A stretch of 64,000 bases of DNA from Escherichia phage PC3: sequence record ON184125; one strand, 5' to 3'. The stretch's first letter is position 1; each line of letters starts with the position of its first letter. The notes under the pieces are model-generated. The model was given only the letters and a program-made list of their open reading frames with translations. It searched no databases and had not been told where the DNA came from. The position numbers and the translations under genes were made by a program. This document shows positions 9,760-63,945 of this stretch, piece by piece.

Positions 9760-10428
9760 ATGCAAGAGATCACTCTCTCCGAACGTACACTTCAGTTGCT
9801 GGCCAACTTTGAGACCATCAACCCATCTATCGTTCTGACACCGGGCAAGATGCTGCGCAGTATTAATGATTCTTCTACTGTGATCGCCGTGGCGCAGATC
9901 GAAGAAGACTTCCCGTTTGAGTTCCCGATTCTGGACCTGACCAAACTTCTGGCCATCCAGCGCCTACCTTCCTTCAAAGGTGCCAAAGCCGAATTCCATC
10001 AGGACTACATCCTGTTGAAAGGCGAAAGCTCTCAGCTGCAATTCTGGCGTTCTGCTAAAGAACTCACGGTTGTCCCGGCTGATACTATTGAACTGCCGTC
10101 TGTCGACTTTGAAGCGATCATCACTCCAGAGAAGATGAAAGAACTGACCCGCGCCTGTTCTACCCTCGGACACAAGACTGTGCGCCTGGTTGCTCAGGGT
10201 GGCAAAACTCGCCTGGTTGCAACCACCACTACCCTGGACAACTCCAACAACTACACTGTTGAGCTGGGCGAAACCGCGCTGCCGGACTTCGTAATGCCAC
10301 TGGATGTTGCCAACCTGAAAATGATCGAAGGCAACTACACTCTGCGTGCATGTGCTGATCTACAAATGGTGAACTTCCAATCATCCGACGCGACGATCAA
10401 TTACTTCGTCGGCGCGCAGATTGAGTAA
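9760..10428 (+). CDS. 45: Sliding clamp (gp45-like)
   Basis: 222 aa; similar to T4 gp45 along its length (N-terminal LLANFETINPSIVL..., C-terminal KMIEGNYTL...); followed by clamp-loader genes. Confidence 0.85.
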   Translation: MQEITLSERTLQLLANFETINPSIVLTPGKMLRSINDSSTVIAVAQIEEDFPFEFPILDLTKLLAIQRLPSFKGAKAEFHQDYILLKGESSQLQFWRSAKELTVVPADTIELPSVDFEAIITPEKMKELTRACSTLGHKTVRLVAQGGKTRLVATTTTLDNSNNYTVELGETALPDFVMPLDVANLKMIEGNYTLRACADLQMVNFQSSDATINYFVGAQIE

Positions 10429-10509
10429 TCAATCTCCAGCCTGATGCTATAATGTGTGGGCGGGGGAGTTCCCCGCCTATTTGAAATGATTCTTCTACAC
10501 GAGGCTGAA

Positions 10510-11166
10510 ATGAGGAACCAACCGTTTGTATATCATTTGTTAGGGAAGGATGGTTCTTTCTATTTTGGTTCTAGAACGAAATTGGGTGCACATCCTTTAC
10601 AATTGTTCACTTCATATTTCACTTCTTCACAAACAGTCAAGGAAATCATATCTAAGAAAGGTTCTGATTTCTTTGATGTAGAATTCGTAGAACTGTTTGA
10701 CTCCCCAGAAGAAGCATATTGGAGAGAGCAGCAGTTGATTAGTGAGAACATTGATCACCCAAAATGTTTAAACAAATCATTTCAGCCACTGGGTTGTGGT
10801 ATCGCCAACGGTAGGTCAGCGGGACCCAAACATCACCGAGTTGGTGTCTCGAGTTGGTTGAAGGGTAAGTCTGGGAATCTTCATCCCATGCACGGAAGAA
10901 CTGGTAAAAGTCACCCCGCCGCAGGAATAAAACCTTGGGACACCGGGGCTGCGCTGCTACACAACACCAGACCGATGTGGTTAAAGGCTGGGGTAGTGTA
11001 TGATCACTGGGTTTCTACTGGTGATGGGTGCCATAGAATTGCCCGTTTGTTCTCTATCAAAGAGAACACCGTAACGAGTATGTTAAACAAATTCAAAGAG
11101 GGCTGGAACCCGTATGATGACGACGCTTGGGTTCTGTTCTGTAAACTATATCATGGAAATACATAA
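10510..11166 (+). CDS. GIY-YIG homing endonuclease (Seg-like) with NUMOD-like C-terminal motifs
   Basis: FVYHLLGKDGSFYFGSRT ... EAYWREQQLISENI match GIY / YIG / conserved Arg, Glu, Asn; locally AT-rich; inserted between genes 45 and 44. Confidence 0.6.
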   Translation: MRNQPFVYHLLGKDGSFYFGSRTKLGAHPLQLFTSYFTSSQTVKEIISKKGSDFFDVEFVELFDSPEEAYWREQQLISENIDHPKCLNKSFQPLGCGIANGRSAGPKHHRVGVSSWLKGKSGNLHPMHGRTGKSHPAAGIKPWDTGAALLHNTRPMWLKAGVVYDHWVSTGDGCHRIARLFSIKENTVTSMLNKFKEGWNPYDDDAWVLFCKLYHGNT

Positions 11167-12155
11167 TGTCTAATATCACGATTGTAAAAGACCAGTACGC
11201 CTGGGAGAACCGTTTCCGCCCTGACAACCTGGACGAGATTATCATCCCTCAAGACGTCCGCGCTAAAATCCATGGCTACATCACCAGCGGTAACGGCAAC
11301 ATCCCGTCTATGCTGTTTTACTCCCCTCAGCCTGGTACTGGCAAGACCACTTCTGCTTTGGCCGTGTGTAATGAAATCGGTTGTAAGCAACCACTGATGA
11401 TCAACGCATCCCTGGACAACAGCATCGACGTTATCCGTGACCGCGTGATTCAGTATTCTACTGGTGTGAGCGTATTCGGTGGCCGCAAAGTCGTTATCCT
11501 CGACGAAGTAGAGCGTCTGTCTATGGCGGCACAGGAGTCGCTGAAGGGTATTGTGGAGAAGGTCTCCAAGAACTGTTCATTCATCTTGACCACCAACGCC
11601 AAGCAACGTGTGAACGAACCTCTGCGCTCTCGTTGCCGTGAAATCGACTTTATCTGGAATGAGGCTGAGGCTGATGAGGTAAAACTTCAGTTCATGCGCC
11701 GCTGTGCTGAAATCCTTCGCAGCGAAGGTGTTGAGTATGACCCTCCTGTGTTGGCTGCTATTGTCAAGCGCCATTTCCCTGATAACCGCCGCATCATGGG
11801 TGTTCTACAGGATAACGTCACCACTTACGGCAAGATCGACGAACGTGCACTGGCTGTGTTAAAATCGGCCGATATGGGCATGTTGGTGAATATGTTGAAG
11901 GATAATGACTGGGCTGGGATGAAGCAGTGGGTGACCGACAACCAGAACTATATCACTGAAGACTTCTATTCCCGCTTCTTCCAGTTCTGTGTACCACAGG
12001 ATAAAGAGAAGCAAATGTTGGTTCAGAATGAGTCTATCCCTGATCTGGTGTGCGTATGTGGTCAGTCTCAGATTGAACACCGTCAAGTCGGCGATGTCTG
12101 GCTGCATGCTGTGTTTTTCCTGACCAATGTCATGCTCAACATCAAGTGGAAGTGA
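11166..12155 (+). CDS. 44: Clamp loader large subunit (gp44-like, AAA+)
   Basis: Walker A SPQPGTGKTT, DEVE box, SRC motif; collinear with T4 gp44 to the C-terminal ...KWK. Confidence 0.9.
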   Translation: MSNITIVKDQYAWENRFRPDNLDEIIIPQDVRAKIHGYITSGNGNIPSMLFYSPQPGTGKTTSALAVCNEIGCKQPLMINASLDNSIDVIRDRVIQYSTGVSVFGGRKVVILDEVERLSMAAQESLKGIVEKVSKNCSFILTTNAKQRVNEPLRSRCREIDFIWNEAEADEVKLQFMRRCAEILRSEGVEYDPPVLAAIVKRHFPDNRRIMGVLQDNVTTYGKIDERALAVLKSADMGMLVNMLKDNDWAGMKQWVTDNQNYITEDFYSRFFQFCVPQDKEKQMLVQNESIPDLVCVCGQSQIEHRQVGDVWLHAVFFLTNVMLNIKWK

Positions 12156-12159
12156 TATT

Positions 12160-12582
12160 ATGGCCGCCCTTGGATTGTTCGATTACCTGGCTGCTCTGAA
12201 CAGCAGCAAAGAAAACCTTTTGCGGTCTGATGACCCAGAAGTGTTGAAAGGATTCGACCCGTTTATGACGCGGCGTGGTTTAGCTCAGAGCAAAGACACT
12301 CTAGTGGCTGCACAACAGATGAATAAGCTACATGCTGTCACTCCATGGATGCAATGGTCATATGCCTTTTACACCATTCCGGCTCGGAAACGCTACGACA
12401 AATGGTCTAAGAAAGGTCCGATTGATCCTGACGTGAAGTTACTCTCCCAGTACTTCTACATCAGCATGGAGAAGGCATCGGAGTACGTCCGTTTCTTGCC
12501 GAAGGAAGTCCTGGCCGAAATACGCGAGAAGATGAGACGCACTGAGCTGAACGCCAAAGCGAAACCGCGCAAGGCTAAGTAG
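12160..12582 (+). CDS. 62: Clamp loader small subunit (gp62-like)
   Basis: ORF 12127-12582 trimmed to ATG just after gene 44 stop; RKRYDKWSKK resembles T4 gp62 RGKRYGKWAK; position conserved. Confidence 0.65.
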   Translation: MAALGLFDYLAALNSSKENLLRSDDPEVLKGFDPFMTRRGLAQSKDTLVAAQQMNKLHAVTPWMQWSYAFYTIPARKRYDKWSKKGPIDPDVKLLSQYFYISMEKASEYVRFLPKEVLAEIREKMRRTELNAKAKPRKAK

Positions 12583-12680
12583 TTCAAACTATTGTAAAAG
12601 GGGAATGAGTCATGGCGCGTAATACGCTAGACATATTGAATATTTCAGCAGTCAACGATGAGGCCAGCATCGTTGATTGT

Positions 12681-13076
12681 ATGGTTGAAGTTCAATTGAA
12701 CCAAGATCGGCCAGGTATATTCCTGGGGATCAAGGAAACACTGAGTCGAATTGGGGTAAACACGCGCCAAGAGCCGAATACTCTGTATCAGACTTGCCAT
12801 ATTCTTCATAAGTGTGGCAAGTATTATATCGTCCACTTTAAGCATCTATTTATGCTGGACGGGCATTACAACGGATTTAACCGCGAAGATGTCCTGAGGA
12901 TGAACCGAATCATCAAGCTGCTGGAGCAGTGGAACATGGTGAAGGTCATTCATCCTGAGCAGGTCACCGAAGCAGCCGATATGTCTCGCATTAAAGTGGT
13001 TAAACACGATCAGGTTCCTGAATGGAAACTGGTTCCAAAATACATCATCCGGCCTACGAAGGCAAAAAGCGAATAA
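12681..13076 (+). CDS. regA: Translational repressor RegA
   Basis: YQTCHILHKCGKYYIVHFK ... EWKLVPKYIIRP closely matches T4 RegA; start chosen by alignment, the upstream ATG at 12612 is an alternative. Confidence 0.7.
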   Translation: MVEVQLNQDRPGIFLGIKETLSRIGVNTRQEPNTLYQTCHILHKCGKYYIVHFKHLFMLDGHYNGFNREDVLRMNRIIKLLEQWNMVKVIHPEQVTEAADMSRIKVVKHDQVPEWKLVPKYIIRPTKAKSE

Positions 13077-13092
13077 CTGGAGTCGCTAAATC

Positions 13093-13965
13093 ATGACAAC
13101 TACATTTTCCAAGAACGTGAATCTGAATCTGGCTTTCGGTAATGCAAAGGGCGACGTCACATCGCCCGACTTTGGTAAGATCCGCAATCAGGCGAAACTG
13201 GTGCTGGAAGAAACCCGTGAACTGCTGGAAGCGGCGTATTTCGACCACGAGGTGAAAATTGAGTTCACTGCATCTCCGCGAGTCCTGAAAGAACCCGTTG
13301 TTGTCGACATCAAAGACATTATGCGCCAGATCATGGATGCCCAGGGTGACATCACAACAGTCAACGACGGCGTGGCTCATATTGCTGGTTTCGACGGTGA
13401 CGAATGCCTACAGCGCGTGTATGCCTCTAACATGAGCAAGTTCATCCGTAATGAAGGTGAAGTTGTGCCAGCACTGGATTACTACTACAACAAAGGATTC
13501 CCACGCGAAAGTCTGCGCATCGAAGGGGAATTCCCTCAGGCGTGCATCAAAGTGGTAGACACCATCACCGTCGACGGCAAAGAGTACCCGGCTGGCAAGT
13601 TCCTGAAGAACATGGCAACCTTCAAAGAGCCGGACTTCTCTGATATGTTGACCGCCGAGCCTAAGCGCCAGATCACTGAAATCATTCTGACGGGTACGGC
13701 CATTCCAGGCCAGCTCGGTTCTAACGAACACGCTGGTGTTGCCTTCGCTCCGTTCGATTTTATTGACGAGATCATGGGATACACCAAGATGGGCTTCCAG
13801 GCGTTCTCTGGCGAAACAGTCGAGAGCTACATTCCCGTGTTTGTTTTCAATGAAGACAACTTCCCAACTCTACCGTTGATCTGGGGTGAATGGAAAGCCA
13901 ACGTCCGTATCTATGTGGCCAGCCCAGTGCAATCATCTATCACCCAACTGACCCGTATCGATTAA
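13093..13965 (+). CDS. Hypothetical protein (290 aa); weak MazG-like helical motif at N-terminus
   Basis: ORF with GGAG SD; LEETRELLEAAYF ... DIMRQIMDAQGD is a weak, unverified resemblance. Confidence 0.45.
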   Translation: MTTTFSKNVNLNLAFGNAKGDVTSPDFGKIRNQAKLVLEETRELLEAAYFDHEVKIEFTASPRVLKEPVVVDIKDIMRQIMDAQGDITTVNDGVAHIAGFDGDECLQRVYASNMSKFIRNEGEVVPALDYYYNKGFPRESLRIEGEFPQACIKVVDTITVDGKEYPAGKFLKNMATFKEPDFSDMLTAEPKRQITEIILTGTAIPGQLGSNEHAGVAFAPFDFIDEIMGYTKMGFQAFSGETVESYIPVFVFNEDNFPTLPLIWGEWKANVRIYVASPVQSSITQLTRID

Positions 13966-13987
13966 GATATACAGTTATTCACTAAAC

Positions 13988-14016
13988 AACAGAGGCTATA
14001 ATGGCCTCTGTTTTCG
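13988..14016 (+). terminator. Rho-independent terminator
   Basis: acagaggc-tataat-ggcctctg stem-loop followed by TTTTCG. Confidence 0.7.
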
Positions 14017-14033
14017 TATTCTAAGAGGATACC

Positions 14034-15254
14034 ATGAAAGATAAAGCCCTGGACGTCCCGTACTGCGGTGTCCGTGAAGAAAAGATAAAGTCGGCCAAAC
14101 CGGTTCTCAGTCCGACCCATACCAGCCTGTCTTACGAATGGATGCGCGATCGTTATCAGATCCACGTCAAGAAGGACGTCCAGCGCCTTCCTGCTCCTTG
14201 GACTGATAATCCCATATTACGGCAGGTCAAGTTCTGTAACGTCCGGAGAGAGCACGACAGGCAGTCTCTCAACCTGATCAACAACATCGTCAACAACGAT
14301 GCTCTGGGTATGGCCGACAAGATGTTCAACTGCGTGATGTTTCGCATGTTCAACCTCTGGGATCCAATCCAGGCTATCGGCGGCGCGATGACGATCAAAG
14401 AATTCGCCGAGATCAACCTCGATGCAACCCGCGAACGACTTCAGAAGTTCGAGGCCGACGGCGGTAAGGTATTCACCAATGCCTTCAACACGGGCGGCCT
14501 GAAGCAATGCCTGGCTTTCCCTGAGATGGTTGTCAACCACAAGGAGCAGCGCTTCGGTGGGATGATGGTGAATCTGATCTGTAAAGATGGTTCAACCCAG
14601 AACATGGATTATAAAGAAGCCAAGGCGATAGCCGAAGCAGAACCGGACTTCTACACCATCGAAGGTTGGGAACCGTACATGCCAATGCGTGTCATCCGCT
14701 CCCTGAAGGCATTCGTCAACAAGTATCCAAATTATTTCCATGACCTGCTGCGCCTTGGTACTCCTTTGGAAGTATACCAGCGCATGTACGACGACATCGA
14801 AGGGCTTGGTCCATTCCTGGCCTATCAGATCTGGGTAGACTTCACTTACATTCCTGAATATCCTTTCAGTGAGAACCACTTCACGGTTGCTGGACCAGGC
14901 TGTCGCGCAGGGATCGACCTGATGTTCCAGGACAAAGATGGCATGACGCATGAAGAATGCATCTTCTGGTTGCGGGACAATCAGGACGCGGTTTATGGCC
15001 CTCTTGGGTATAACAGGGAAGAATTTTGGTCTGCGGAAGAGCCTTGGGATCGCCATTTAAATATAATGGCAGGAGAAAATATGTTTTGTGAACTTCAGAA
15101 ATATACCCGTTGTGTAGAGGCCATACAGCAAGGTAAAAAGCCGCGCGGGAAGGTTGGATATGACGGCGGTGGGGAATACAAAAAGCGCTGTGATGAAGTC
15201 GTGCTCAAACGTGGTTCCGTCAATTTGCTGGACCGTTTGAAGAAACCTGAATAA
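14034..15254 (+). CDS. Hypothetical protein (406 aa)
   Basis: Well-formed ORF with AGAGGA SD; no motif I can assign. Confidence 0.5.
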   Translation: MKDKALDVPYCGVREEKIKSAKPVLSPTHTSLSYEWMRDRYQIHVKKDVQRLPAPWTDNPILRQVKFCNVRREHDRQSLNLINNIVNNDALGMADKMFNCVMFRMFNLWDPIQAIGGAMTIKEFAEINLDATRERLQKFEADGGKVFTNAFNTGGLKQCLAFPEMVVNHKEQRFGGMMVNLICKDGSTQNMDYKEAKAIAEAEPDFYTIEGWEPYMPMRVIRSLKAFVNKYPNYFHDLLRLGTPLEVYQRMYDDIEGLGPFLAYQIWVDFTYIPEYPFSENHFTVAGPGCRAGIDLMFQDKDGMTHEECIFWLRDNQDAVYGPLGYNREEFWSAEEPWDRHLNIMAGENMFCELQKYTRCVEAIQQGKKPRGKVGYDGGGEYKKRCDEVVLKRGSVNLLDRLKKPE

Positions 15255-15368
15255 AGATTCCCTTTACTTCGTTCTTCAATAACTCAATCCAGCGTATATT
15301 GACCTCACTTAAACGAAGCGCCCTGGCAAACGGGGCGCACATTTGAACTGAAACAGGAAGATTACATC

Positions 15369-17387
15369 ATGTCAGATTTTAAGCCCTTCGCAGTAGCTGT
15401 CAACAATAACGTGCTGGCCATGTCAGCAACTGGTCTGTTCATGACCAACATCGATAAAGATGCTCTGTGGGATCTGTATCTGTCTTCTTTCCCTGCTGGC
15501 ACTAACCCGCTTTATCGTGAGCGTACCGAGCACGACTGCACCTGCTGTAAACAATTCATCCGTAACATCGGCGGTGTGGTCACCATCGACTCCGACCTGA
15601 ACGTGATCTCTATCTGGGATAACATTCAGCTGGGTAACGAATACGACGTTGTCGCTGCGGCGCTGTCAGCATATGTTAAGCAGCACGCAATCGTCGACGT
15701 GTACTTCAACGACACCAAGAAAGTTGGTGTTGAGTCGAATCACGAAATGAAAGACGGTATTGTCCGCACCTACAACCACTTCCACACCGACCTGCTGGGT
15801 AGCTATGTTCTGCGGGCAGATACCATCGCTTCTAAGAAGGGTGAAATCCGCCAGGCGATTGAAGTGTTTGAGCGCGGCCTGCGTGAACTGTCTCTGGAAT
15901 CGGCTGAAATCGTTCTTGAATTGATTGACCAGAATTCTCTGTATCGCGGTGAAGAGCACAAAGCGGCAGTGCAGGCGTTCGTGGTGAACAAGACCCTGTA
16001 CGAACAAACTGCAGAAGAGAAACGCGCTCTGTGGGCTTGGCGCACTGGCTACCGTGCAAACGGTCATACCCCTCACGGCATTCGTAATACCGTGATTGGC
16101 TCTCTGCTGGTAGACCTCAATGAAGGTCGGGATCTGGAAACCGCCGTGAAGTCCTTTGAAGCCAAAGTCGCTCCGACGAACTACAAGCGCCCAACCGCGC
16201 TGGTCACGAAGTCGATGATTGAAAACGCGCAGAAAGAAGTCGAAGCACTGGGTCTGACTGATTCACTGGGTCGCCGTTATGCCGTGTATGACGATCTGAC
16301 CATCAACAACGTTCTGTTCGCCGACCTAGCAGCTCAGAAGAAGATGGACCCGTTTGCTCAGCTGGCGTCTGAAGTGAAGACTCCGACCAAGTCCCTGGAC
16401 AAGGTTGAAGAGATCACGATCGACGACTTCCTGACCAACGTGTTGCCAAAGGCGCATTCCCTGGAAGTGCTGGTCGAAAACTCTCACATTGGCAACCTGA
16501 TGTCCCTGATCGCTCCGGCCACCGCAGGCGCTCCTAACCTGTTCAAGTGGAACAACGGCTTCAGCTGGTCGTACAATGGCGAAGTGGCCGACTCCATCAA
16601 AGAGCGCGTGAAGACCGCAGGCGGCAATGTCGACAGCTTCCTCCGTGTGTCACTGGCTTGGCATAACAACGACGACCTGGATCTGAGCCTGAACGATCCT
16701 CTTCACAACCACGTGTATTATCACAACCGTCGTTCGACAACTGGCGCAACTCTAGACATCGACATGAACGGTATGGACGGCATTGATCCAAACCGCCGTC
16801 CGGTGGAGAACATCTTCTTCAGCGATGAACGCAAGCTGCGTGATGGTCTGTACGAGTTCTATGTCACTAACTTCAGCCAGCGTGAAACCTGTGATATGGG
16901 ATTCGAAATCGAAGTTGAATACAAAGGCCAGACCAAGCGTTTTTCGCATCCTGGCCTGAAGCACAAAGATCGCACTCTGGCTGTTGTGATTGATGTCCGC
17001 GCTGGACAAGTGGTAGACATCCGTTCTACCCTGAAAGACGACGCTCGCTCTCAGGAAATCTGGGGCATCAAGACCTCCGTCTTCCAGAAGGTACAGCTGG
17101 TTCTGAACTCACCAAACCATTGGGACGGCGAGCAGACTGGCAACAAGCACGTGTTCTTCATCCTGGAAGGTTGTGTTAACCCTGTCGGCACCCGTGGTTT
17201 CTATAACGAATATCTGAAGCCGGAACTTGATAAACACCGCAAGGTTTTTGAAATGTTAGGCAGTAAGATTAAAGTACAGCCAAGCACTGAGCAGCTGTCC
17301 GGTCTGGGCTTCTCTACCACCCAACGCAACCACGTGTTCGTGAAGGTGAGCGGTTCTTTCAACCGCACTGTGAAAGTTGTGTTCTAA
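15369..17387 (+). CDS. Hypothetical large protein (672 aa)
   Basis: Long ORF with AGGAAG + attacatcATG context; no motif I can assign. Confidence 0.55.
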   Translation: MSDFKPFAVAVNNNVLAMSATGLFMTNIDKDALWDLYLSSFPAGTNPLYRERTEHDCTCCKQFIRNIGGVVTIDSDLNVISIWDNIQLGNEYDVVAAALSAYVKQHAIVDVYFNDTKKVGVESNHEMKDGIVRTYNHFHTDLLGSYVLRADTIASKKGEIRQAIEVFERGLRELSLESAEIVLELIDQNSLYRGEEHKAAVQAFVVNKTLYEQTAEEKRALWAWRTGYRANGHTPHGIRNTVIGSLLVDLNEGRDLETAVKSFEAKVAPTNYKRPTALVTKSMIENAQKEVEALGLTDSLGRRYAVYDDLTINNVLFADLAAQKKMDPFAQLASEVKTPTKSLDKVEEITIDDFLTNVLPKAHSLEVLVENSHIGNLMSLIAPATAGAPNLFKWNNGFSWSYNGEVADSIKERVKTAGGNVDSFLRVSLAWHNNDDLDLSLNDPLHNHVYYHNRRSTTGATLDIDMNGMDGIDPNRRPVENIFFSDERKLRDGLYEFYVTNFSQRETCDMGFEIEVEYKGQTKRFSHPGLKHKDRTLAVVIDVRAGQVVDIRSTLKDDARSQEIWGIKTSVFQKVQLVLNSPNHWDGEQTGNKHVFFILEGCVNPVGTRGFYNEYLKPELDKHRKVFEMLGSKIKVQPSTEQLSGLGFSTTQRNHVFVKVSGSFNRTVKVVF

Positions 17388-17431
17388 ACCTGATTTGAAA
17401 TTGTAACCCATTCATCATTGAGGATAGTAAA

Positions 17432-17803
17432 ATGTTTGATAAAGCAACCCGTATGAAACTGCGCTTCGAGTCTAACAAAGGTCTGCTGTCTGTTGAGCAG
17501 GTCTGGGACCTGAGCCTGACTGCCCTGAACGAAATGGCGAAAGGTCTGAGCCGTCAGGTGAAAGCAGCAGAAACCGATGAAGAAGATTTCATTGGCACCA
17601 AAAGCAACGTTGACTCCGAACTGCAGCTGCGCTTCGACGTTGTCAAGCACATCATCGGCGTTAAGCTGAAAGAACGTGACGACAGCAGAGAAGCGGCAGA
17701 GCGTAAGGCGAACAACCAGGTTATCCTGGAGCTGATCCAACGTAAGAAACAGCAAGAGCTGGAAAGCAAATCTGTTGAAGAACTGGAAGCACTCCTGAAA
17801 TAA
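17432..17803 (+). CDS. Hypothetical protein (123 aa), charged, coiled-coil-like C-terminus
   Basis: ORF with GAGGA SD, followed by terminator. Confidence 0.5.
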   Translation: MFDKATRMKLRFESNKGLLSVEQVWDLSLTALNEMAKGLSRQVKAAETDEEDFIGTKSNVDSELQLRFDVVKHIIGVKLKERDDSREAAERKANNQVILELIQRKKQQELESKSVEELEALLK

Positions 17804-17825
17804 TCTGTCTGACCTCAGCCTGAGC

Positions 17826-17854
17826 AACCCCGCCATGTGCGGGGTTTCTTTTGG
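17826..17854 (+). terminator. Rho-independent terminator
   Basis: aaccccgc-catgt-gcggggtt stem-loop followed by TCTTTTGG. Confidence 0.7.
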
Positions 17855-17863
17855 ACAAAGAAT

Positions 17864-18238
17864 ATGAAACCTGTCATTTGTGATTACTGCGGCCTCCCAG
17901 CCGAATTCGTCGGTGGTGATGTTCTCTACCCTCATCGCCCTGACCTCCGCAATCTGAAGTTCTGGGTGTGCACTCCATGTGATGCCCGTGTCGGTTGCCA
18001 TACCCATGGCGACGGCAGACAACCTTTGGGAAGGATGGCGAATGCCGCTCTCCGTGCTGCTAAGCAGGAAGCCCATAGATCGTTTGACCCATTGTGGAAA
18101 AGCGGAGAGAGGAGCAGGAGCGACGCTTATAGTTGGCTGGCGCATAAGCTGGGGATAAAGAAGCGTGAGTGTCATATTGGCTTGTTCGATATCGACATGT
18201 GCCGTAAAGTAGTGGAGGTCTGTAAACAAATATCATAG
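17864..18238 (+). CDS. Zinc-ribbon protein (paired CxxC motifs)
   Basis: CDYCG ... CTPCD ... C.H cysteine pairs; ORF 17837-18238 trimmed to MKPVICDYCG. Confidence 0.45.
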   Translation: MKPVICDYCGLPAEFVGGDVLYPHRPDLRNLKFWVCTPCDARVGCHTHGDGRQPLGRMANAALRAAKQEAHRSFDPLWKSGERSRSDAYSWLAHKLGIKKRECHIGLFDIDMCRKVVEVCKQIS

Positions 18239-18246
18239 GATAACAC

Positions 18247-19119
18247 ATGACAAATCGTACTGGCATAAAACTCACTCCTGAAGTCCTGAAGTCACATATC
18301 GCTGAGGTGATTTACGAAGACCGCGAAGTCGGCGGTCACCGGGCTATCACTTGTCATTTCAAGATGGATAACGGCTTCGTCGTTCACGGCACCAAGCCCA
18401 GCACATCCATAGACCCGGCCAACTTTGATGAAGCCCTGGGCAAAGAGATTTCCTACAATAATACCTTCGACCAGCTGTGGCAGCTCGAGGCGTACCGGGC
18501 GCTTGTTGAACAAGATCTGTTGGCCAAAGCCACGGAAACGGCAGAGATCCGGATCGATAAATACGCTGTTGAACGTAGCGCCCTCTATCCGGCCTATCAC
18601 CTCGGCTTCAATGTGATGATTCAGGACGTGATGTTCAGAGCGGAAAATGGCGAGCGCTTCTTGGCGTCTTTCGTTTGTGGGCCGGATGACATGGAACTTG
18701 TTGTTGAATCTCACAACGCCAAATCTCGTAAGGCTGTTAGTGATTTCCTGCGCGCCAACTCCAAACTCGATCTCACTTATTCGCCATTGGTTCTGCGCAT
18801 CGCCAAGATTTGTCATGAAGCCAACCGCGCATACTGTAAGTCTGTTGGTGACGACTCTCAACTGCCTTGGGAACAATCTCCGGCCTGGCAACGTGAGAGC
18901 GCTTGCAAAGGTGTTATCTTCCATCTCACTGGTGATCGTAAGCCCAGCGAATCACATGAGAGATGGATGGCGGAGAAGGAGTCTGAGGGTTGGGTGTATG
19001 GCCCAGTCAAAGACCCTCAGACCAAACAACACCCTTGCATGGTTCCGTATGGAGAACTCCCGGTACAACAACGCTCCAAAGATTATATTTTCAAATCCAT
19101 TGTAGACTCCTTTAAATAA
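18247..19119 (+). CDS. RyR-domain-containing protein
   Basis: C-terminal GWVYGPVKDPQTKQHPCMVPYGELP matches the RyR-domain signature as I recall it. Confidence 0.5.
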   Translation: MTNRTGIKLTPEVLKSHIAEVIYEDREVGGHRAITCHFKMDNGFVVHGTKPSTSIDPANFDEALGKEISYNNTFDQLWQLEAYRALVEQDLLAKATETAEIRIDKYAVERSALYPAYHLGFNVMIQDVMFRAENGERFLASFVCGPDDMELVVESHNAKSRKAVSDFLRANSKLDLTYSPLVLRIAKICHEANRAYCKSVGDDSQLPWEQSPAWQRESACKGVIFHLTGDRKPSESHERWMAEKESEGWVYGPVKDPQTKQHPCMVPYGELPVQQRSKDYIFKSIVDSFK

Positions 19120-19269: not shown

Positions 19270-19446
19270 ATGACCGACAACAAATTAAAACGTGCCGGAC
19301 TTGATTGTCTTGACAAATCATTCCGCCCCAGTGATGTTCTGGTCGCCCAAATGGAAAACAACCGGGATTTCATTGAAACTATGCTGGAGAACGCCGACGC
19401 GAACTCCAAACACTCCAAAGCCCAAAAAGGTCAAAACGATGATTGA
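19270..19446 (+). CDS. Hypothetical small protein (58 aa)
   Basis: ORF 19243-19446 trimmed to ATG after GAGAG; overlaps start of vWA gene by 8 nt. Confidence 0.3.
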   Translation: MTDNKLKRAGLDCLDKSFRPSDVLVAQMENNRDFIETMLENADANSKHSKAQKGQNDD

Positions 19447-21640
19447 ATCATTAACATTTAAGAATGCGGTTGCGACCGTCGCGCCGTCTAACCATGTAAT
19501 CGTTGTGGATATCTCCGGTTCCATGTATCGTTCACTTCCAGAAGTCCGTAAGCATCTGAAGGAGAACATGCCTTCCCTGGTGAAACCCGAAGATACTGTG
19601 AGCATCCTTTACTTTTCATCTCGCGGTGATTTCGGAACGGTATTTGCCGGGCGTCAGATCGGTGCCGCATCTGACCTGAGCGAGCTGAACAAACTGATCG
19701 ATCGCTTCCTGCAACCGTCCGGATGTACTGGCTTTGTTGAGCCGTTGAAACTGGCAATGGACACTGCTCGTGGCCTGAAGAAGCCTGGCTATGTCAACAA
19801 CCTGGCGTTCATGACTGACGGGTATGACAACTGCTGGCGTACCAACGAAATTCTACTGGTTGCTGAGACCCTGCCATTTGCTTTCGATAACATTACATTT
19901 ATCGAATATGGCTGGTACTGTAACCGCGAACTGCTGGCGCAGATGGCCGAACGCTCTGGTGCTACTCACGTGTTTGCCGAAGGTCAGACCGAATACCAGA
20001 CCGAGCTGGAAAACGTGCTGAAGTCATCAGTGCCGAAGGTGGTTGTTGATGTGCCTCTGCTATACACCCACGCCATCTATGTTGAAAACGGCGTAGCAAC
20101 TGTTCTGGCGGTACAGCCGGATGAAGACCATCCTATCGGCCACGTGAGCATCCCTGAGAGCGTCGCCAAGCTGTGGGTTGTAAACCCTAACATGATCGAC
20201 CAGCTTGATGCGCTGGCGGATATCCAGGCGGCATACGTGCTGGCGTTCTACGGCGTACACATTATGGACGCGGACCTGGTGTGGGCTGCACTGAAGAAAA
20301 CGGGTGACGTTCGCTTCATCAAACAGTACAGCAACTGCTTCACCAAGCAGGACTACTCCAACATCAAAGTTGATCTGACCCAGGCCATCGTTGATGACCA
20401 GCTGCGCGGCGTTGACGGTATTGACTATGACCTGGTTCCGGCTGAAGATGCGACGACCGTCGTTGACGTGCTGACGTATCTGGCTGAAGCTGGCGTGTGT
20501 GTTGCTACCAAACATCCTATGTTCTCCTACAAGAGCATCGGGCGCGGTACTGTGCAGAAAACCGACGACACCGAAGACAAGCTGGCAGAACAGATCGCGA
20601 ATGCTCAGTCCAAAGAAGAGCGTAAAGCCCTGGCTCTCAAGCTGGCAGAGCACGAAGAGTGGAACCCGACGTTCGAACCTACCAACGACCTGGGTGTTGT
20701 GCCAATCAGCGATTTGGTCTATAACTCCGAGCGCCCGAACATCAGTGTGCGTACAATTCAACACGGTACTGTGGCTGTGCCTGAATTCGCACAGAAGAAG
20801 TTTGGCCTGCCTGAAGAACTGGATACTTTCCAGTGGCGCAACTACACCATCGTCAAAGACGGTATCATTAACGTGAAGACTCTGCCGTTCAAGGCTGATA
20901 TCGAAGTTGTACAGAAGCTGATCGAAATGGGTGTCCACGTGTTTGGTGGTCCGGAAGTGTTTGTCCTGAACCTGGAAAGCGTACCGCTGGTCAACCGCGC
21001 CATGGTCAAAAACATCAGTGCTGCTCAGTTCTTTGCGGATAATGTCCGTCTGGAAGCCCTGAAAGGCAAGCAGAAGGTGCTGAAGTTCTATCGAGACGCC
21101 CTGGTTGGTAAGGGTAACGCCAAAGGCCTGGCAGTACAGTACGGCGCTGAGGCGGCCGAGTTCCTGTCCTCCTACGGTATCCGCGATTACGGCTTCTCAC
21201 CGAAGACTGAGACCAAAGAGTCTACCGACTTCTACATGAGCCGTGAGCTGAACGTTAAGATCGCCGGGGCGTCTTCACTACCGAGCATCGCGGCAGTACA
21301 GAAGAAGATTGCCGAGAACAAGAAACTCAATGCTGGTGACTTGTTCATCGCTAATGCGCTGAAGGAGTACGAAGCATTCGTGAAGTCTCCTATGATCACT
21401 GCCGTGCCTGAATCCTTACAGAAATATCTGATCGAAAACTGGATCGACGCTGCTGCCAAGGCGGCCATCACCGAAGTCCGCGCCCTGAACAAGACACTGT
21501 CTAAAGTGGTTTATGGTATCGTTGCTGGTCATGGCTGGTTCACCGACCTCGACCTGGAAGAGTCCACCATGGAAGTTGAAGTGGATGGCGTGAAGTACAA
21601 GGTCACTGCCGAACTGACAGAGAAAGAAATCAAAATCTAA
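19439..21640 (+). CDS. von Willebrand factor A (vWA) domain protein (733 aa)
   Basis: N-terminal VVDISGSMYRS ... FMTDGYDN (MIDAS-like DxSxS and downstream acidic motif); ORF 19292-21640 trimmed to MIESLTF. Confidence 0.55.
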   Translation: MIESLTFKNAVATVAPSNHVIVVDISGSMYRSLPEVRKHLKENMPSLVKPEDTVSILYFSSRGDFGTVFAGRQIGAASDLSELNKLIDRFLQPSGCTGFVEPLKLAMDTARGLKKPGYVNNLAFMTDGYDNCWRTNEILLVAETLPFAFDNITFIEYGWYCNRELLAQMAERSGATHVFAEGQTEYQTELENVLKSSVPKVVVDVPLLYTHAIYVENGVATVLAVQPDEDHPIGHVSIPESVAKLWVVNPNMIDQLDALADIQAAYVLAFYGVHIMDADLVWAALKKTGDVRFIKQYSNCFTKQDYSNIKVDLTQAIVDDQLRGVDGIDYDLVPAEDATTVVDVLTYLAEAGVCVATKHPMFSYKSIGRGTVQKTDDTEDKLAEQIANAQSKEERKALALKLAEHEEWNPTFEPTNDLGVVPISDLVYNSERPNISVRTIQHGTVAVPEFAQKKFGLPEELDTFQWRNYTIVKDGIINVKTLPFKADIEVVQKLIEMGVHVFGGPEVFVLNLESVPLVNRAMVKNISAAQFFADNVRLEALKGKQKVLKFYRDALVGKGNAKGLAVQYGAEAAEFLSSYGIRDYGFSPKTETKESTDFYMSRELNVKIAGASSLPSIAAVQKKIAENKKLNAGDLFIANALKEYEAFVKSPMITAVPESLQKYLIENWIDAAAKAAITEVRALNKTLSKVVYGIVAGHGWFTDLDLEESTMEVEVDGVKYKVTAELTEKEIKI

Positions 21641-21681: not shown

Positions 21682-22005
21682 ATGAGCAGTAAACCAACAT
21701 ATGTTGAAGTCATGCGTCATCTGGCTCAGTACGCCACTGACAATCTGAATATGGATCTGTGGCGTGACGATGACAAGCGCAAATTGCTGGACGACGTGGC
21801 ATCTCAGAACGAGGACGCCCTGGACAAGCTGGCTGGTCTCCGTACCAAGAAAGACCTCGGCGGTGACGAACTGGATGCCATCGAAATCGTAATGGAACTA
21901 GAAGAAGAGTTTCAGGTCGAAATCGACGACGGGTGGCTAGGTAGTAAAGGCGATGACCCGACCATGGGTGAACTCGCTGAACTCGTGGTTGCCCTGCGCA
22001 AATAA
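21682..22005 (+). CDS. Acyl-carrier-protein-like four-helix protein lacking the phosphopantetheinylation serine
   Basis: DLGGDELDAIEIVMELEEEFQVEIDD parallels ACP [20 protein letters not shown] but has DEL in place of DSL. Confidence 0.5.
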   Translation: MSSKPTYVEVMRHLAQYATDNLNMDLWRDDDKRKLLDDVASQNEDALDKLAGLRTKKDLGGDELDAIEIVMELEEEFQVEIDDGWLGSKGDDPTMGELAELVVALRK

Positions 22006-61122: not shown

Positions 61123-61782
61123 ATGTCCTACTCCCTGAAGGGGCTGATGAAGCGCCCCGTCCACACATTCTTTAAACCACCCGTCGTAAAGGGGATCTAC
61201 CCAGCACGAGGGCAAATCTACTACGTCAAAGGCTCCAATGGTAGCGGTAAATCCACTGTGCCGTCTCAGCTGGCGGAGAGGGATCCTCAGGCGTATGTCG
61301 TGACCCATAACGGCAAGGTAATGCTGACTGTCTGTCCTTCGTTCAACGTGGTCTGTATCGGTAAATATGACAAGTCGAAGTCCAAGGGGGTTGATTCCCT
61401 GAAGGACACTGAGCAGATGTTGTTCGCGTTGTCTATTGCTGACCAACCAGAATACTTGAAATATGATGTGATTTTCGAAGGTATCATTCCATCCACATTA
61501 TTGAGTTCTTGGATCCCCCGCCTGACACGCCCACCACGTGAATTGGTTGTGCTCTTTATGGACACTCCCCTTGAAACGTGTATCTCCCGCGTTAAATCAC
61601 GTAACGGCGGTGTGGACTTCAATGAAAGTCTGGTGGTCGAGAAGTGGGAGAGAGTTCATGACCATCGTCAACGACATAAAGACTTGTTCCCTACGGTAGC
61701 TGCGGGTATGATGAAGTCTCACGGCCTAACGGTAGACCAGGCTGTGATGGCATTCCTCTGTCGTGATTTTGGGAGTATCTGA
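61123..61782 (+). CDS. P-loop kinase (candidate DNA/nucleotide kinase of a pyrimidine-modification pathway)
   Basis: Walker A GSNGSGKST near N-terminus; 219 aa; immediately upstream of, and overlapping, the TS-family gene. Confidence 0.5.
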   Translation: MSYSLKGLMKRPVHTFFKPPVVKGIYPARGQIYYVKGSNGSGKSTVPSQLAERDPQAYVVTHNGKVMLTVCPSFNVVCIGKYDKSKSKGVDSLKDTEQMLFALSIADQPEYLKYDVIFEGIIPSTLLSSWIPRLTRPPRELVVLFMDTPLETCISRVKSRNGGVDFNESLVVEKWERVHDHRQRHKDLFPTVAAGMMKSHGLTVDQAVMAFLCRDFGSI

Positions 61783-62828
61783 TGGAAATCAAAGCAATTA
61801 ACAACAATGACATGCTGAAGCAGGCTGTCTTGGCTATCCGTGAATTCGGGATCGAATCTGATCCTGGTAATGCTGAAATAAATACTGATAGCACCCGCTT
61901 CCTTGATGGCGTGACCATAACCGTCGCCGACATCCGTGACCGCTGGCTATCCGTTGAAGGTCGTAACTCATCGGCTATCGCTGCCATCGGCGAGACCTTC
62001 TGGGTTCTGTCCGGGCGCGATGACGTTCGCTTCCTGTCCCGCGTATTACCTCGCGCTGCTAACTTTTCGGATGATGGGGTAACATGGCGAGCTGCTTATG
62101 GTCCGCGTCTGTACGCCCATGGCCAGCTGGATAGCGTTATCAACCGCCTGCGCAAGAACCCAAACACTCGCCAGGCGTACCTCACCATCTATGACCCGGC
62201 TCTAGATTCGGATGCTGGTCTGGCGAAGTTCAGCGAGAGCGGCGAAGCAAAGACTAAGGACATGGTGTGTAACCTGGCTCTGTTGTTCGCCATCGTTGAA
62301 GGTCGTCTGAACCTGACGGTCATCAACCGCTCACAGGATGTTCTGTGGGGGATGAGTTCAATCAACTTCATTGAGTTCTCTATTCTTCAGGAAGTGATTG
62401 CTCGGGTGCTGGACGTTGACGTCGGTCAGTACAAGCTATTCTCTAACAATCTTCATTACTACAACAATGAAGTCAGCCAGAAGCAGCTTGGCAAGATTAC
62501 CAAAGACACAAAAGTCACTGGTGGTTTCATCAACTCCATGATTCACTTCACGAACGTGACCAACCAGAACCATATCCGCAATCTGTTCACTGGTGTGCTT
62601 CATCACTGTGATATCGGCAGCCCGTGGGAAACTGTGGTCGCCCACCTGAAGGAATATGATGCTGATCGTGGCCTGATTGTACAGATGGCGTACTGTCTGC
62701 ACTGCAAACTGAACGAAAAGCTCATTAACCTGGACCTGATTCAGGATCATGGCTTGAACACCGCGCTCACCCATTCTCCGGTTGACCGCAAGATCGTTGA
62801 TCCTAAGTTCCTGGAAGGTGTAGTATGA
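61782..62828 (+). CDS. Thymidylate-synthase-family pyrimidine hydroxymethylase (dUMP or dCMP hydroxymethylase-like)
   Basis: TS-fold signatures: catalytic Cys in DMVCNLALLF and RSQDVLWG (cf. ThyA PCH.. and RS.DV); diverged from canonical ThyA. Confidence 0.65.
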   Translation: MEIKAINNNDMLKQAVLAIREFGIESDPGNAEINTDSTRFLDGVTITVADIRDRWLSVEGRNSSAIAAIGETFWVLSGRDDVRFLSRVLPRAANFSDDGVTWRAAYGPRLYAHGQLDSVINRLRKNPNTRQAYLTIYDPALDSDAGLAKFSESGEAKTKDMVCNLALLFAIVEGRLNLTVINRSQDVLWGMSSINFIEFSILQEVIARVLDVDVGQYKLFSNNLHYYNNEVSQKQLGKITKDTKVTGGFINSMIHFTNVTNQNHIRNLFTGVLHHCDIGSPWETVVAHLKEYDADRGLIVQMAYCLHCKLNEKLINLDLIQDHGLNTALTHSPVDRKIVDPKFLEGVV

Positions 62829-63394
62829 TGTACCCAAATCTTGAATTCTTTACGGGGCGCAAACGCTCCGGCAAGGACTTCTGTTTGGAGTCCCTGATCA
62901 GTTACCACCACTTACAGGGTGATATGGACATACAGCGCCTTTCTTTCTCTGATGAACTGCGCCGTGTAGCCAACTACATCTACCCATGGCTCCCAGCGGA
63001 GGTAGAGGATGCCGTGAAGGACGTTCCTTACGTGCACCCTGATAACCCCAAGGGCTTAACTCCACGGCAGATCTGGCTTCATCTAGGCAGCGATACGGGC
63101 TTGCGTTATGTACAGCCTGATCTGTTCCTGGCATTCTTCAAGCGCTTCCAGCTTCCTCTGGTAGAGCAGAACCCCCACGTCCATTATATCGTGAGCGATC
63201 TGCGTACCCCTCAGGAATATGAATGGGCGCTGAGTACGAAATGTCCTATCACCCGTATTTCAAAGGCCGACCGTGCTGGTATCATAGAGGACGATATAGA
63301 GGCTTTCATTGACCAAATGAAAGTGGACTACGAATTCCTCAATCCATTTGATGGTTGGGAACCGTTCGTTAAATTCTACGGAGAACGTAAATGA
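62825..63394 (+). CDS. Deoxynucleoside monophosphate kinase-like protein (T4 gp1-like)
   Basis: N-terminal FFTGRKRSGKD resembles T4 dNMP kinase LSGVKRSGKD. Confidence 0.6.
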   Translation: MMYPNLEFFTGRKRSGKDFCLESLISYHHLQGDMDIQRLSFSDELRRVANYIYPWLPAEVEDAVKDVPYVHPDNPKGLTPRQIWLHLGSDTGLRYVQPDLFLAFFKRFQLPLVEQNPHVHYIVSDLRTPQEYEWALSTKCPITRISKADRAGIIEDDIEAFIDQMKVDYEFLNPFDGWEPFVKFYGERK

Positions 63395-63945
63395 TCACAG
63401 CAGGGCATATCAAAAGCCTGCTCGAACTCCAAAAGGCCACCAACGTGGCCTACTTTGGGGAAGAGTGGAAGAATGTATGGAGTCAGAACGCAGTCATCAA
63501 CTCTATCTATCGTGAGTGGGCAGAGTTCCTTGATGAAACCACCCGTGACTGGAAGGTCTATGGCAACGACATCGGGTTTGACCATACGAACGCAGTTTAT
63601 GAACTGGTGGACGTGGTACACTTCATGTTGTGCTTCATCCTTGTGGACCGCACCAAAGGTGAGATCGAAGAAGAATTTGAAGTCCTTAGTAATCGCGAAT
63701 TCACCCCATCTGCTTTGGGTGTTGTAGGGCATCACAATGTTACGTACCGCCTTGGGCAATTCATGAACGATCCTTGCGTTGAGACTCTCATGTTCTTCCT
63801 GTCGTCTGCGTGTTCTTATATGGAGATCGACATTGAGACTTACATACTGGCACACAAACGCAAGAACGATCGCAATCGCCTGCGTGCTGCTGGTGGCGCG
63901 GATTACGATAAGTCTGCAGAAACCCCTCTGACCCTGGAGTTCTAA
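63391..63945 (+). CDS. MazG-like dNTP pyrophosphohydrolase (T4 gp56 dCTPase/dUTPase-like)
   Basis: YELVDVVHFMLCFILV matches gp56/MazG core FELVDIFHFVLNMFV; EWAEFLDET acidic helix. Confidence 0.6.
   Translation: MITAGHIKSLLELQKATNVAYFGEEWKNVWSQNAVINSIYREWAEFLDETTRDWKVYGNDIGFDHTNAVYELVDVVHFMLCFILVDRTKGEIEEEFEVLSNREFTPSALGVVGHHNVTYRLGQFMNDPCVETLMFFLSSACSYMEIDIETYILAHKRKNDRNRLRAAGGADYDKSAETPLTLEF

Follow-up and report, generated by a model that had tools for sequence, protein, structure and literature searches.

Three genes downstream of regA in Escherichia phage PC3 probably belong to separate functional units

The position of the polymerase gene

In phage T4, genes 45, 44, 62, and regA are followed by gene 43, which encodes the DNA polymerase. 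What stands in the place of gene 43 in Escherichia phage PC3? For a stretch of 64,000 nucleotides from this phage (record ON184125; referred to below as the window), the initial annotation had described a T4-like 45-44-62-regA order with no polymerase next to it and, instead, three uncharacterized open reading frames (ORFs) of 290, 406, and 672 amino acids (aa). We found the three ORFs exactly as described, at positions 13093 to 13965 (ORF1), 14034 to 15254 (ORF2), and 15369 to 17387 (ORF3), and the T4-like order was confirmed, with a GIY-YIG gene inserted after gp45. All three ORFs lie on the positive strand, start with ATG, and correspond to the coding sequences (CDSs) PH4_000045 to PH4_000047 of Escherichia phage PH4 (ON184126.1; Ackermannviridae, Aglimvirinae). 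Positions 12600 to 17900 of the window are 100% identical to PH4 (the PH4 record coordinate minus 32000 gives the window coordinate) and 92 to 98% identical to relatives including Ag3, SKML-39, and Marshall. Because each ORF has hundreds to thousands of full-length homologs, these are real genes rather than chance ORFs.

None of the three proteins matched a polymerase family in Pfam, and a tblastn search with the PolB protein of phage ViI found nothing across the window. In ViI, the DNA polymerase gene is located about 55 kb away from this locus, beside gp243 and gp247. Thus, ORF1 to ORF3 do not functionally replace gene 43, and the polymerase is encoded elsewhere in the genome.

We consider it probable that ORF1 encodes a nucleoside triphosphate (NTP) pyrophosphohydrolase, that ORF2 encodes a clade-1 aGPT-PPlase of the DNA hypermodification pathway, and that ORF3 and the 123-aa gene downstream of it form a separate, portable module. 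The description of the three genes as uncharacterized holds for ORF3, a member of the Pfam family DUF8224 (PF26675). It does not hold for ORF1, which has a product name in GenBank, or for ORF2, which scores 267 bits against PF18723 and whose type is named in the literature. With the genome published and the other steps of the pathway already reconstituted, the outcome is mostly a clarification, and it is the DUF8224 pair that is both real and uncharacterized.

ORF2 is a clade-1 aGPT-PPlase

ORF2 (14034 to 15254, positive strand) matched the Pfam family PF18723 (HMUDK_hel, formerly aGPT-Pplase1; "5-hmdU DNA kinase, helical domain," where 5-hmdU is 5-hydroxymethyldeoxyuridine) with a score of 267 bits at a cutoff of 25 (E = 2.5e-79). 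Its residues 30 to 365 align with positions 4 to 280 of the 281-position profile. The protein has no Walker motif, and its counterpart in ViI was therefore sought. The gp numbers used by Lee et al. are those of the orf000NN notes in the Vi01 record, in which gp67 (the P-loop kinase YP_004327432) adjoins thyA, and orf00160, that is, gp160, is the gene beside regA and a MazG-like gene. Gp160 (Vi01_130c, YP_004327501) is 81% identical to ORF2 over the full length. The two genes have the same neighbors (regA, the MazG-like gene, and the DUF8224 gene) and the same hypermodification genes genome-wide, and we saw no difference of substance between them. ORF2 is thus the ortholog of gp160, which was listed as aG/PT-PPlase1 (Table 3 of Lee 2018) and was part of the five-lysate reconstitution of 5-(2-aminoethoxy)methyldeoxyuridine (5-NeOmdU; PMC5889632). 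The ortholog in the 94%-identical phage SW16-7 was named aGPT-Pplase1 (PMC10458263), and the modification genes of the Ackermannviridae include "two aGP/TP-PPases" according to a 2026 preprint.

The AlphaFold2 (AF2) model of ORF2 has a predicted helix-hairpin-helix (HhH) DNA-glycosylase-like fold and matched only HhH proteins. The same fold was predicted for the family by Iyer et al. in 2013, as cited in PMC8989533. The HhH element itself, assigned by inspection from the AF2 secondary structure, spans aa 244 to 270 (14763 to 14843, positive strand). It consists of a helix (244 to 254), an E-G-L-G-P hairpin, and a second helix (260 to 270), with F261, L262, Y264, Q265, and D269 invariant. Further toward the C terminus lies a putative catalytic motif, E348-N349-M-F-C352-E353 (15075 to 15092, positive strand), which is invariant in 42 family members; its residues E348, N349, C352, and E353 are retained in sequences down to 43% identity. 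An R71-R72-x-x-D75-R76 cluster and a T148-N-A-F-N-x-G-G-x-K157 loop are also invariant.

A Glu/Thr...Cys catalytic motif is essential in M6 gp51, ViI gp247, and PUGT, whose active site contains E243 and T244, which hold the metal, and C247 (PMC11472151). These proteins belong to clade 2, the amino-acid:DNA transferases (PF18724, ADDT), together with YuA and 15599 Pplase2; PUGT is PaMx11 gp46 (8Z2M/8Z2N). The respective strings are N-T-E-T-V-F-C-W-V-K-K in the ADDT of a compact hypermodification cluster (L088), F-E-T-S-G-A-C-W-L-K-K in gp247, and A-G-E-N-M-F-C-E-L-Q-K in ORF2, so that the ORF2 motif putatively corresponds in pattern to the clade-2 E-T-x-x-C. ORF2 did not match the PF18724 model. 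An hhalign comparison of the ORF2 family with gp247 gave a probability of 0.4% with shallow profiles, and the family profile missed 8Z2M in the PDB. As sequence profiles give no link to clade 2, ORF2 is not a member of ADDT. Unlike the clade-2 proteins, it carries additional N-terminal sequence and an inserted beta-hairpin (aa ~160 to 212), and it cannot replace gp247 in serine transfer.

Other genes of the pathway are found at the far end of the window, all on the positive strand. They are an HMUD1 kinase (61123 to 61782; Pfam HMUDK_HMUD1, E = 3.6e-109; 88% identity to ViI gp67), a ThyA-like dUMP hydroxymethylase (61782 to 62828; identified by Pfam and by tblastn with ViI thyA), a dNMP-kinase-like gene (62825 to 63394; Pfam), and dUTPase_2 (63391 to 63945; Pfam). 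The last three constitute the pre-replicative part of the pathway, and L088 and L089, two compact clusters, contain the same set. Distant relatives of ORF2 (~45% identity) occur in clusters of the order PolB-HMUD2 kinase-ADDT-PPlase1-...-HMUD1 kinase-ThyA-like-dNMP kinase-dUTPase_2. Clade-1 genes (PPlase1) are clustered with or fused to kinase genes in L088, L089, L118 to L122, and L125; in L118, PPlase1 adjoins HMUD2 and ADDT.

Two fusions are of opposite order. In the metagenomic locus L122 (4644 to 6521), PPlase1 forms the N-terminal part of a fusion with an HMUD1 kinase (Walker A motif, G-T-N-G-S-G-K-S-T), whereas in gp186 of Bacillus phage SP10 (L129, 17383 to 19296) the kinase comes first. 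The PF18723 domain places both proteins in the family of ORF2 (E = 2.4e-44 for gp186 and 2.7e-65 for L122), and the L122 protein retains the motif as L-E-N-C-F-C-E-F-S-K-Y. They differ from the PH4 arrangement in that PPlase1 is covalently joined to the kinase, which in PH4 is a separate gene 46 kb away; the L122 protein also lacks the beta-hairpin insert of ORF2. The initial annotation had guessed at aGPT-PPlase-type enzymes for one or more of the three genes. The gp160 orthology, the HhH fold, and the co-occurrence and fusion with kinases bear this out for ORF2, but the guess failed for ORF1 and ORF3, as detailed below.

Possible roles of ORF2 in hypermodification

We infer that ORF2 is an HhH, base-flipping DNA enzyme of the post-replicative 5-NeOmdU hypermodification pathway. 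Its presumed substrate, 5-phosphomethyl-dU (5-PmdU), is made in DNA by the HMUD1 kinase. ORF2 would bind this base, Cys352 would attack C6, the phosphate would be expelled to give an exocyclic methylene, and this intermediate would be resolved with a partner other than serine. Candidate products are thymine or a second adduct; the third candidate is an accessory role with no chemistry. We leave the exact reaction unassigned because serine transfer is performed by gp247 and because a kinase (gp67 or gp243), gp247 (the serine:DNA transferase), and gp226 (a pyridoxal phosphate-dependent decarboxylase) account for 5-NeOmdU (Lee 2021; PMC8989533).

Several observations weigh against an enzymatic part for ORF2 in this pathway. 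In vitro, 5-NeOmdU can be made with no more than purified kinase, gp247, and gp226, gp247 is needed even when gp160 is present, and gp160 was given no function (PMC8989533). The literature that we searched reports no activity for clade 1, a search on HMUDK_hel found nothing, and the later structural and biochemical papers concern clade 2 only. The equivalence of the ORF2 Cys and Glu residues to those of clade 2 was judged from sequence pattern, not from residue-level superposition, and sequence profiles connect ORF2 to neither ADDT nor PUGT. Finally, the present Pfam name makes the ORF2 domain the helical domain of the kinase.

That name is in keeping with a different role, in which ORF2 would bind DNA and flip bases as an accessory without catalytic activity, either presenting 5-hmdU to the kinase or determining which thymine positions become modified. 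The fusion of the PF18723 domain to the kinase in SP10 gp186 and L122, its place next to HMUD2 in compact clusters, the dispensability of the ORF2 type for 5-NeOmdU synthesis in vitro, and the partial, sequence-dependent character of the modification all agree with such a role. However, the Glu-x3-Cys-Glu motif, R71/R72/D75/R76, and T148-K157 are invariant down to ~43% identity, which is typical of an active site, and the SP10 kinase domain is active alone (PMC8989533). Moreover, SP10 lacks a second PPlase to attach glutamate, according to Lee 2018 (PMC5889632), from which it can be argued that clade 1 includes transferases in their own right. We regard a purely accessory role as unlikely.

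Alternatively, ORF2 could be the missing enzyme that turns leftover 5-PmdU sites into plain thymine by forming the methylene and then reducing it. Work on PhiW-14 and SP10 around 1980 reportedly left open how thymine arises post-replicatively. The virion DNA of ViI, M6, SP10, and PhiW-14 is free of 5-hmdU, the unmodified sites becoming T by an unknown route (PMC8989533), and conversion by ORF2 would explain this. The clade-2 intermediate is chemically reducible to thymidine, and ORF2 retains the Cys/Glu motif, is linked to the kinase, and is of a type dispensable for the hypermodified base itself. On the other hand, ORF2 has no recognizable domain for binding NAD(P)H, flavin, or folate (PF18723 was its only Pfam match, and its fold matched only HhH proteins), and SP10 has no candidate glutamate transferase other than the same domain, an argument for clade 1 being a group transferase. 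Conversion to thymine is thus doubtful as the specific reaction. More broadly, and just as tentatively, ORF2 could determine what becomes of 5-hmdU that is activated by the kinase but escapes hypermodification, using Cys352 and Glu348 to take 5-PmdU to thymine or to a second, undetected product. If so, it would close the gap concerning the post-replicative origin of thymine. The clade-1 PPlase is conserved, keeps an active-site-like Cys/Glu motif, occurs in two independent kinase fusions, and is the sole PPlase in SP10; its putative reaction is open to direct testing.

ORF1 resembles MazG/PRA-PH-type pyrophosphohydrolases

ORF1 (13093 to 13965, positive strand) consists of an NTP pyrophosphohydrolase domain (aa 1 to 190) and a C-terminal extension (aa ~196 to 290). 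Its GenBank product name is nucleoside triphosphate pyrophosphohydrolase, and it matched phrog_2144, labeled "MazG-like pyrophosphatase" (E = 5e-132), and phrog_671 (E = 3e-20). The family is narrow, all 246 matches being of the Ackermannviridae type. By tblastn, stand-alone homologs of residues 1 to 190, about 183 aa long, were found in Schitoviridae, in Pseudomonas phage BHU-1 (33% identity; E = 9e-21), and in Ralstonia phage RSP15 (28% identity; E = 8e-9). The homolog from Pectobacterium phage A38 (Schitoviridae) is 52% identical to the ORF1 domain and is annotated as a PRA-PH family member. The BHU-1 and RSP15 proteins both pass the Pfam PRA-PH cutoff of 21.3 bits, with 31.6 and 23.0 bits, respectively; at the MazG cutoff of 22 bits, BHU-1 reaches it exactly (22.0) and RSP15 falls just short (19.8).

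Like MazG and PRA-PH (HisE) proteins, ORF1 shows an acidic pattern, E-E-x-x-E ... D-x-x-G-D, and a conserved N-x-x-K. Residues E40, E43, D82, D86, N113, K116, K169, and K172 are invariant, and the four acidic ones, assigned to the motif by inspection, are invariant in five sequences that are 31 to 75% identical to ORF1. The second acidic motif reads DxxxD, as opposed to the canonical ExxD of the superfamily. ORF1 further differs from MazG/PRA-PH proteins in falling under all Pfam thresholds, in a beta-rich segment (aa ~126 to 190) that is common to its stand-alone homologs, and in its C-terminal extension of ~95 aa, seen only in Ackermannviridae. These C-terminal residues diverge fast: the ViI ortholog is 60% identical overall, with the differences located mostly there.

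From sequence comparison, ORF1 would be a metal-dependent, all-alpha NTP pyrophosphohydrolase of the MazG/PRA-PH superfamily, with thinner support than we have for ORF2. The assignment depends on PHROG labels, on transitive homology, and on motifs read by eye, and other results run counter to it. ORF1 itself had no match in Pfam or NCBIfam; neither the full protein nor its N-terminal half matched the MazG, PRA-PH, or dUTPase_2 models of Pfam even at E values up to 10; the ORF1 profile found no relative in the PDB; and hhalign comparisons with shallow profiles showed no similarity to the other NTP pyrophosphohydrolases of the phage. The suggestion that ORF1 might be an aGPT-PPlase-type enzyme was not supported, given its MazG/PRA-PH-type features and the occurrence of its domain alone in other phages.

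As a pyrophosphohydrolase, ORF1 would most likely trim the dNTP pool, with dTTP and dUTP as conceivable substrates. A more specific version makes ORF1 a dedicated component of the pathway, a dTTP/dUTP pyrophosphatase that would keep canonical T out of replicating DNA in favor of 5-hmdUTP. Phages of the CBA120 type exclude 3H-thymidine from their DNA (PMC3184105), as expected of such a role; ORF1 adjoins PPlase1 in 39 Ackermannviridae loci; and its catalytic acidic residues are conserved. Yet the compact hypermodification clusters hold dUTPase_2 rather than an ORF1 homolog, the ORF1 domain is found on its own in Schitoviridae and other phages, where the 4-kb flanks inspected held no modification genes, and in L118 the ORF1 homolog remains with regA. 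Because dUTPase_2 also adjoins ThyA in this window, it is a better candidate than ORF1. We do not favor a dTTP/dUTPase role, though it is conceivable, and the evidence for it points to ORF1 no more than to dUTPase_2. Unannotated genes of ~300 aa in the compact clusters were tested as ORF1 homologs and proved not to be homologous.

In A38 (L092, 4001 to 4552) and other Schitoviridae (N4-like phages), the 183-aa homolog of the ORF1 domain (~50% identity) lies beside a portal-like gene and a tRNA gene. The domain has moved between very different phage families.

ORF3 and a 123-aa partner form a portable module

ORF3 (15369 to 17387, positive strand) belongs to DUF8224 (PF26675; phrog_1735), has five domains, and is the first gene of a two-gene module. 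PF26675 was absent from our local Pfam copy, and the assignment was taken from a precomputed listing, in which it covers cluster representatives that share 99% identity with ORF3 as well as 118 of 118 full-length relatives listed. ORF3 has at least 5,480 word-indexed matches, and the DUF8224 family comprises 4,732 clusters at 50% identity, 1,230 of them below 1e-30. Its members are found in 557 cultured phage records of many families, ranging from Ackermannviridae and the ~145-kb myoviruses of Klebsiella, Proteus, and Pectobacterium to phiCbK-, Bastille-, and N4-like phages and to Alteromonas, Microcystis, and SP-15 phages. Full-length identity in unrelated contigs remains at 45 to 50%, and such constancy across lineages implies a strongly constrained function.

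Immediately downstream of ORF3 is a gene for a 123-aa protein (17432 to 17803, positive strand; phrog_2018, E = 1.4e-47) with a conserved N-terminal sequence, R-x-K-x-R-F-x-s-x-k-G-x-l-s-v-E-D-L-W-D-L-p-L, and a charged, helical C terminus. A homolog of this partner adjoins DUF8224 in every locus sampled (113 of 113), of which 83 are viral or metagenomic and 30 come from cellular genome assemblies. Among the 83, the partner is immediately downstream in 80, with a median gap of 31 nucleotides, and immediately upstream in 3. Clustering of the neighbors in 66 loci from outside the Ackermannviridae yielded no third universal partner; the next most common neighbors were ligase, polymerase, and primase-helicase genes, each in about 8 to 10 of the 66 loci. 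Within 10 kb of DUF8224, we found no PPlase, HMUD kinase, ADDT, ThyA-like, or ORF1 homolog in any of 67 non-Ackermannviridae loci on unrelated viral contigs, and ORF3 is therefore independent of hypermodification. The proposal that it might be a base-modifying transferase fails on the same count, the expected co-occurrence being missing from 67 of 67 loci. Thus, the true unit is ORF3 plus the next gene, a portable two-gene module outside the hypermodification pathway that is shared by hundreds of unrelated cultured phages and thousands of metagenomic clusters.

The AF2 model of ORF3 (predicted local distance difference test score, 84.8) has five domains, of which only one is recognizable: a predicted TerD/DUF2135-like beta-sandwich at aa ~420 to 555 (16626 to 17033, positive strand), in which the acidic motifs D436-L-D438, D463-x-D465, and E480 are invariant. 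The modeled segment conforms to the TerD beta-sandwich fold, and weak DUF2135 matches were obtained for 8 of 72 DUF8224 members; neither ORF3 nor the 72 relatives matched the Pfam TerD model. In TerD, a beta-sandwich of this type binds calcium. In comparison with TerD (PDB 2KXT, 2QZ7), ORF3 is four times larger, has four other domains without a known counterpart, and is encoded by a phage together with an obligate small partner, outside any ter operon. With low confidence, we suggest that ORF3 and its small coiled-coil partner might form a non-structural complex that binds a metal or a small ligand. Some results detract from this suggestion: the other four domains had no structural match, BFVD returned only uncharacterized phage proteins, and function can be approached only through the fold of a single domain and the pairing of the genes. 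The family matched no defense-system model, and our literature searches found no mention of DUF8224 and no publication on it or on phrog_2018.

It is very unlikely that ORF3 is instead a virion, structural, or protease-type protein. Structure matches had low Z scores, many of them to beta-sandwich modules such as pilins and collagen-binding domains; no structural or protease family was matched in Pfam or PHROG; and ORF3 lies among replication and nucleotide-metabolism genes both here and in other lineages, with no sign of a structural module. More tentatively, DUF8224 and the 123-aa protein might constitute a two-component function that is new for phages and very widespread among them. The pair is among the more widespread uncharacterized gene pairs of large lytic phages.

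The Vi01 record (L003, 35300 to 37319; Vi01, 85300 to 87319) splits the DUF8224 ortholog into CDSs of 491 and 183 aa, both noted as orf00158, and PH4 and more than 100 relatives encode a single protein of ~670 aa. We attribute the split in Vi01 to pseudogene formation or to a frameshift or sequencing error. A DUF8224 pair was also found in a large cellular contig, the 3.5-Mb L134 from a Sericytochromatia metagenome-assembled genome (4426 to 12396). One of its flanks carries genes for a rifampin ADP-ribosyltransferase (Arr), an SbtA-type transporter, and an alpha-2-macroglobulin, and the other carries a gene for a 1107-aa protein without a family match. Given these flanking genes, the pair may also live in non-prophage islands. 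The large protein encoded upstream of the pair in L134 was considered as a relative of the von Willebrand factor A (VWA) protein of the window (19292 to 21640) and is unrelated. The VWA protein itself was rejected as a third DUF8224 partner, as it co-occurs only in Ackermannviridae.

Three units rather than one system

The initial annotation had also raised the possibility of an unrecognized enzyme system, and the three proteins might together form one base-modifying system in the polymerase slot. All 39 Ackermannviridae loci sampled (16 + 23) keep the order regA-ORF1-ORF2-DUF8224, anchored upstream by regA (12612 to 13076, positive strand; Pfam Translat_reg, E = 2.1e-34), and the genes share one strand and have short intergenic gaps. 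Other findings oppose a single system. Outside this family, ORF3 is accompanied by its small partner but by neither ORF1 nor ORF2 (0 of 67 loci), and ORF2 homologs of other lineages have no ORF1 or ORF3 nearby. In L118, PPlase1 is grouped with HMUD2 and ADDT, and ORF1 is next to regA. In the window itself, a terminator-like hairpin with a T-rich tail lies in the spacer between ORF1 and ORF2 (13988 to 14012, positive strand; 11-bp stem). We consider a single system highly improbable and largely refuted already. ORF1 to ORF3 belong to different functional units.

The hairpin came from a consensus scan and is suggestive only, as is a GC-rich, terminator-like hairpin directly 3' of the 123-aa partner gene (17826 to 17846, positive strand); the scan placed no such hairpin between ORF3 and the partner gene. 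Because the numbers of sites in promoter and terminator scans were not above the shuffled expectation, the operon boundaries are tentative. A TATAAT sequence sits in the loop of the hairpin in the ORF1-ORF2 spacer (13966 to 14033).

For all three proteins, searches of NCBIfam and PADLOC gave zero matches, and sequence searches of PDB chains with the proteins and their family profiles gave nothing meaningful.

Neighboring genes

Upstream of regA are the genes for gp45, the sliding clamp (9760 to 10428), gp44, the clamp loader (11166 to 12155), and gp62 (12127 to 12582). Between the first two, a GIY-YIG/SegE-like homing endonuclease gene (10456 to 11166), labeled only "hypothetical protein" in PH4, splits the clamp and clamp-loader genes.

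Downstream of the DUF8224 pair, a DUF3268 zinc-finger protein is encoded at 17837 to 18238; DUF3268 homologs also occur within a few kilobases of DUF8224 in five non-Ackermannviridae loci (L049, L050, L081, L086, and L155). It is followed by a gene for a protein that joins an N4 gp49/Sf6 gp66-type N-terminal domain with a RyR domain (18247 to 19119), by the gene for the VWA protein (phrog_2426; 733 to 782 aa), and by that for a phage acyl carrier protein (21682 to 22005). The VWA and acyl carrier pair is conserved in ViI as Vi01_123c and Vi01_122c. A further homing endonuclease, of the HNH type, is present in the ORF1-ORF2 region of Salmonella phages Marshall and Maynard.

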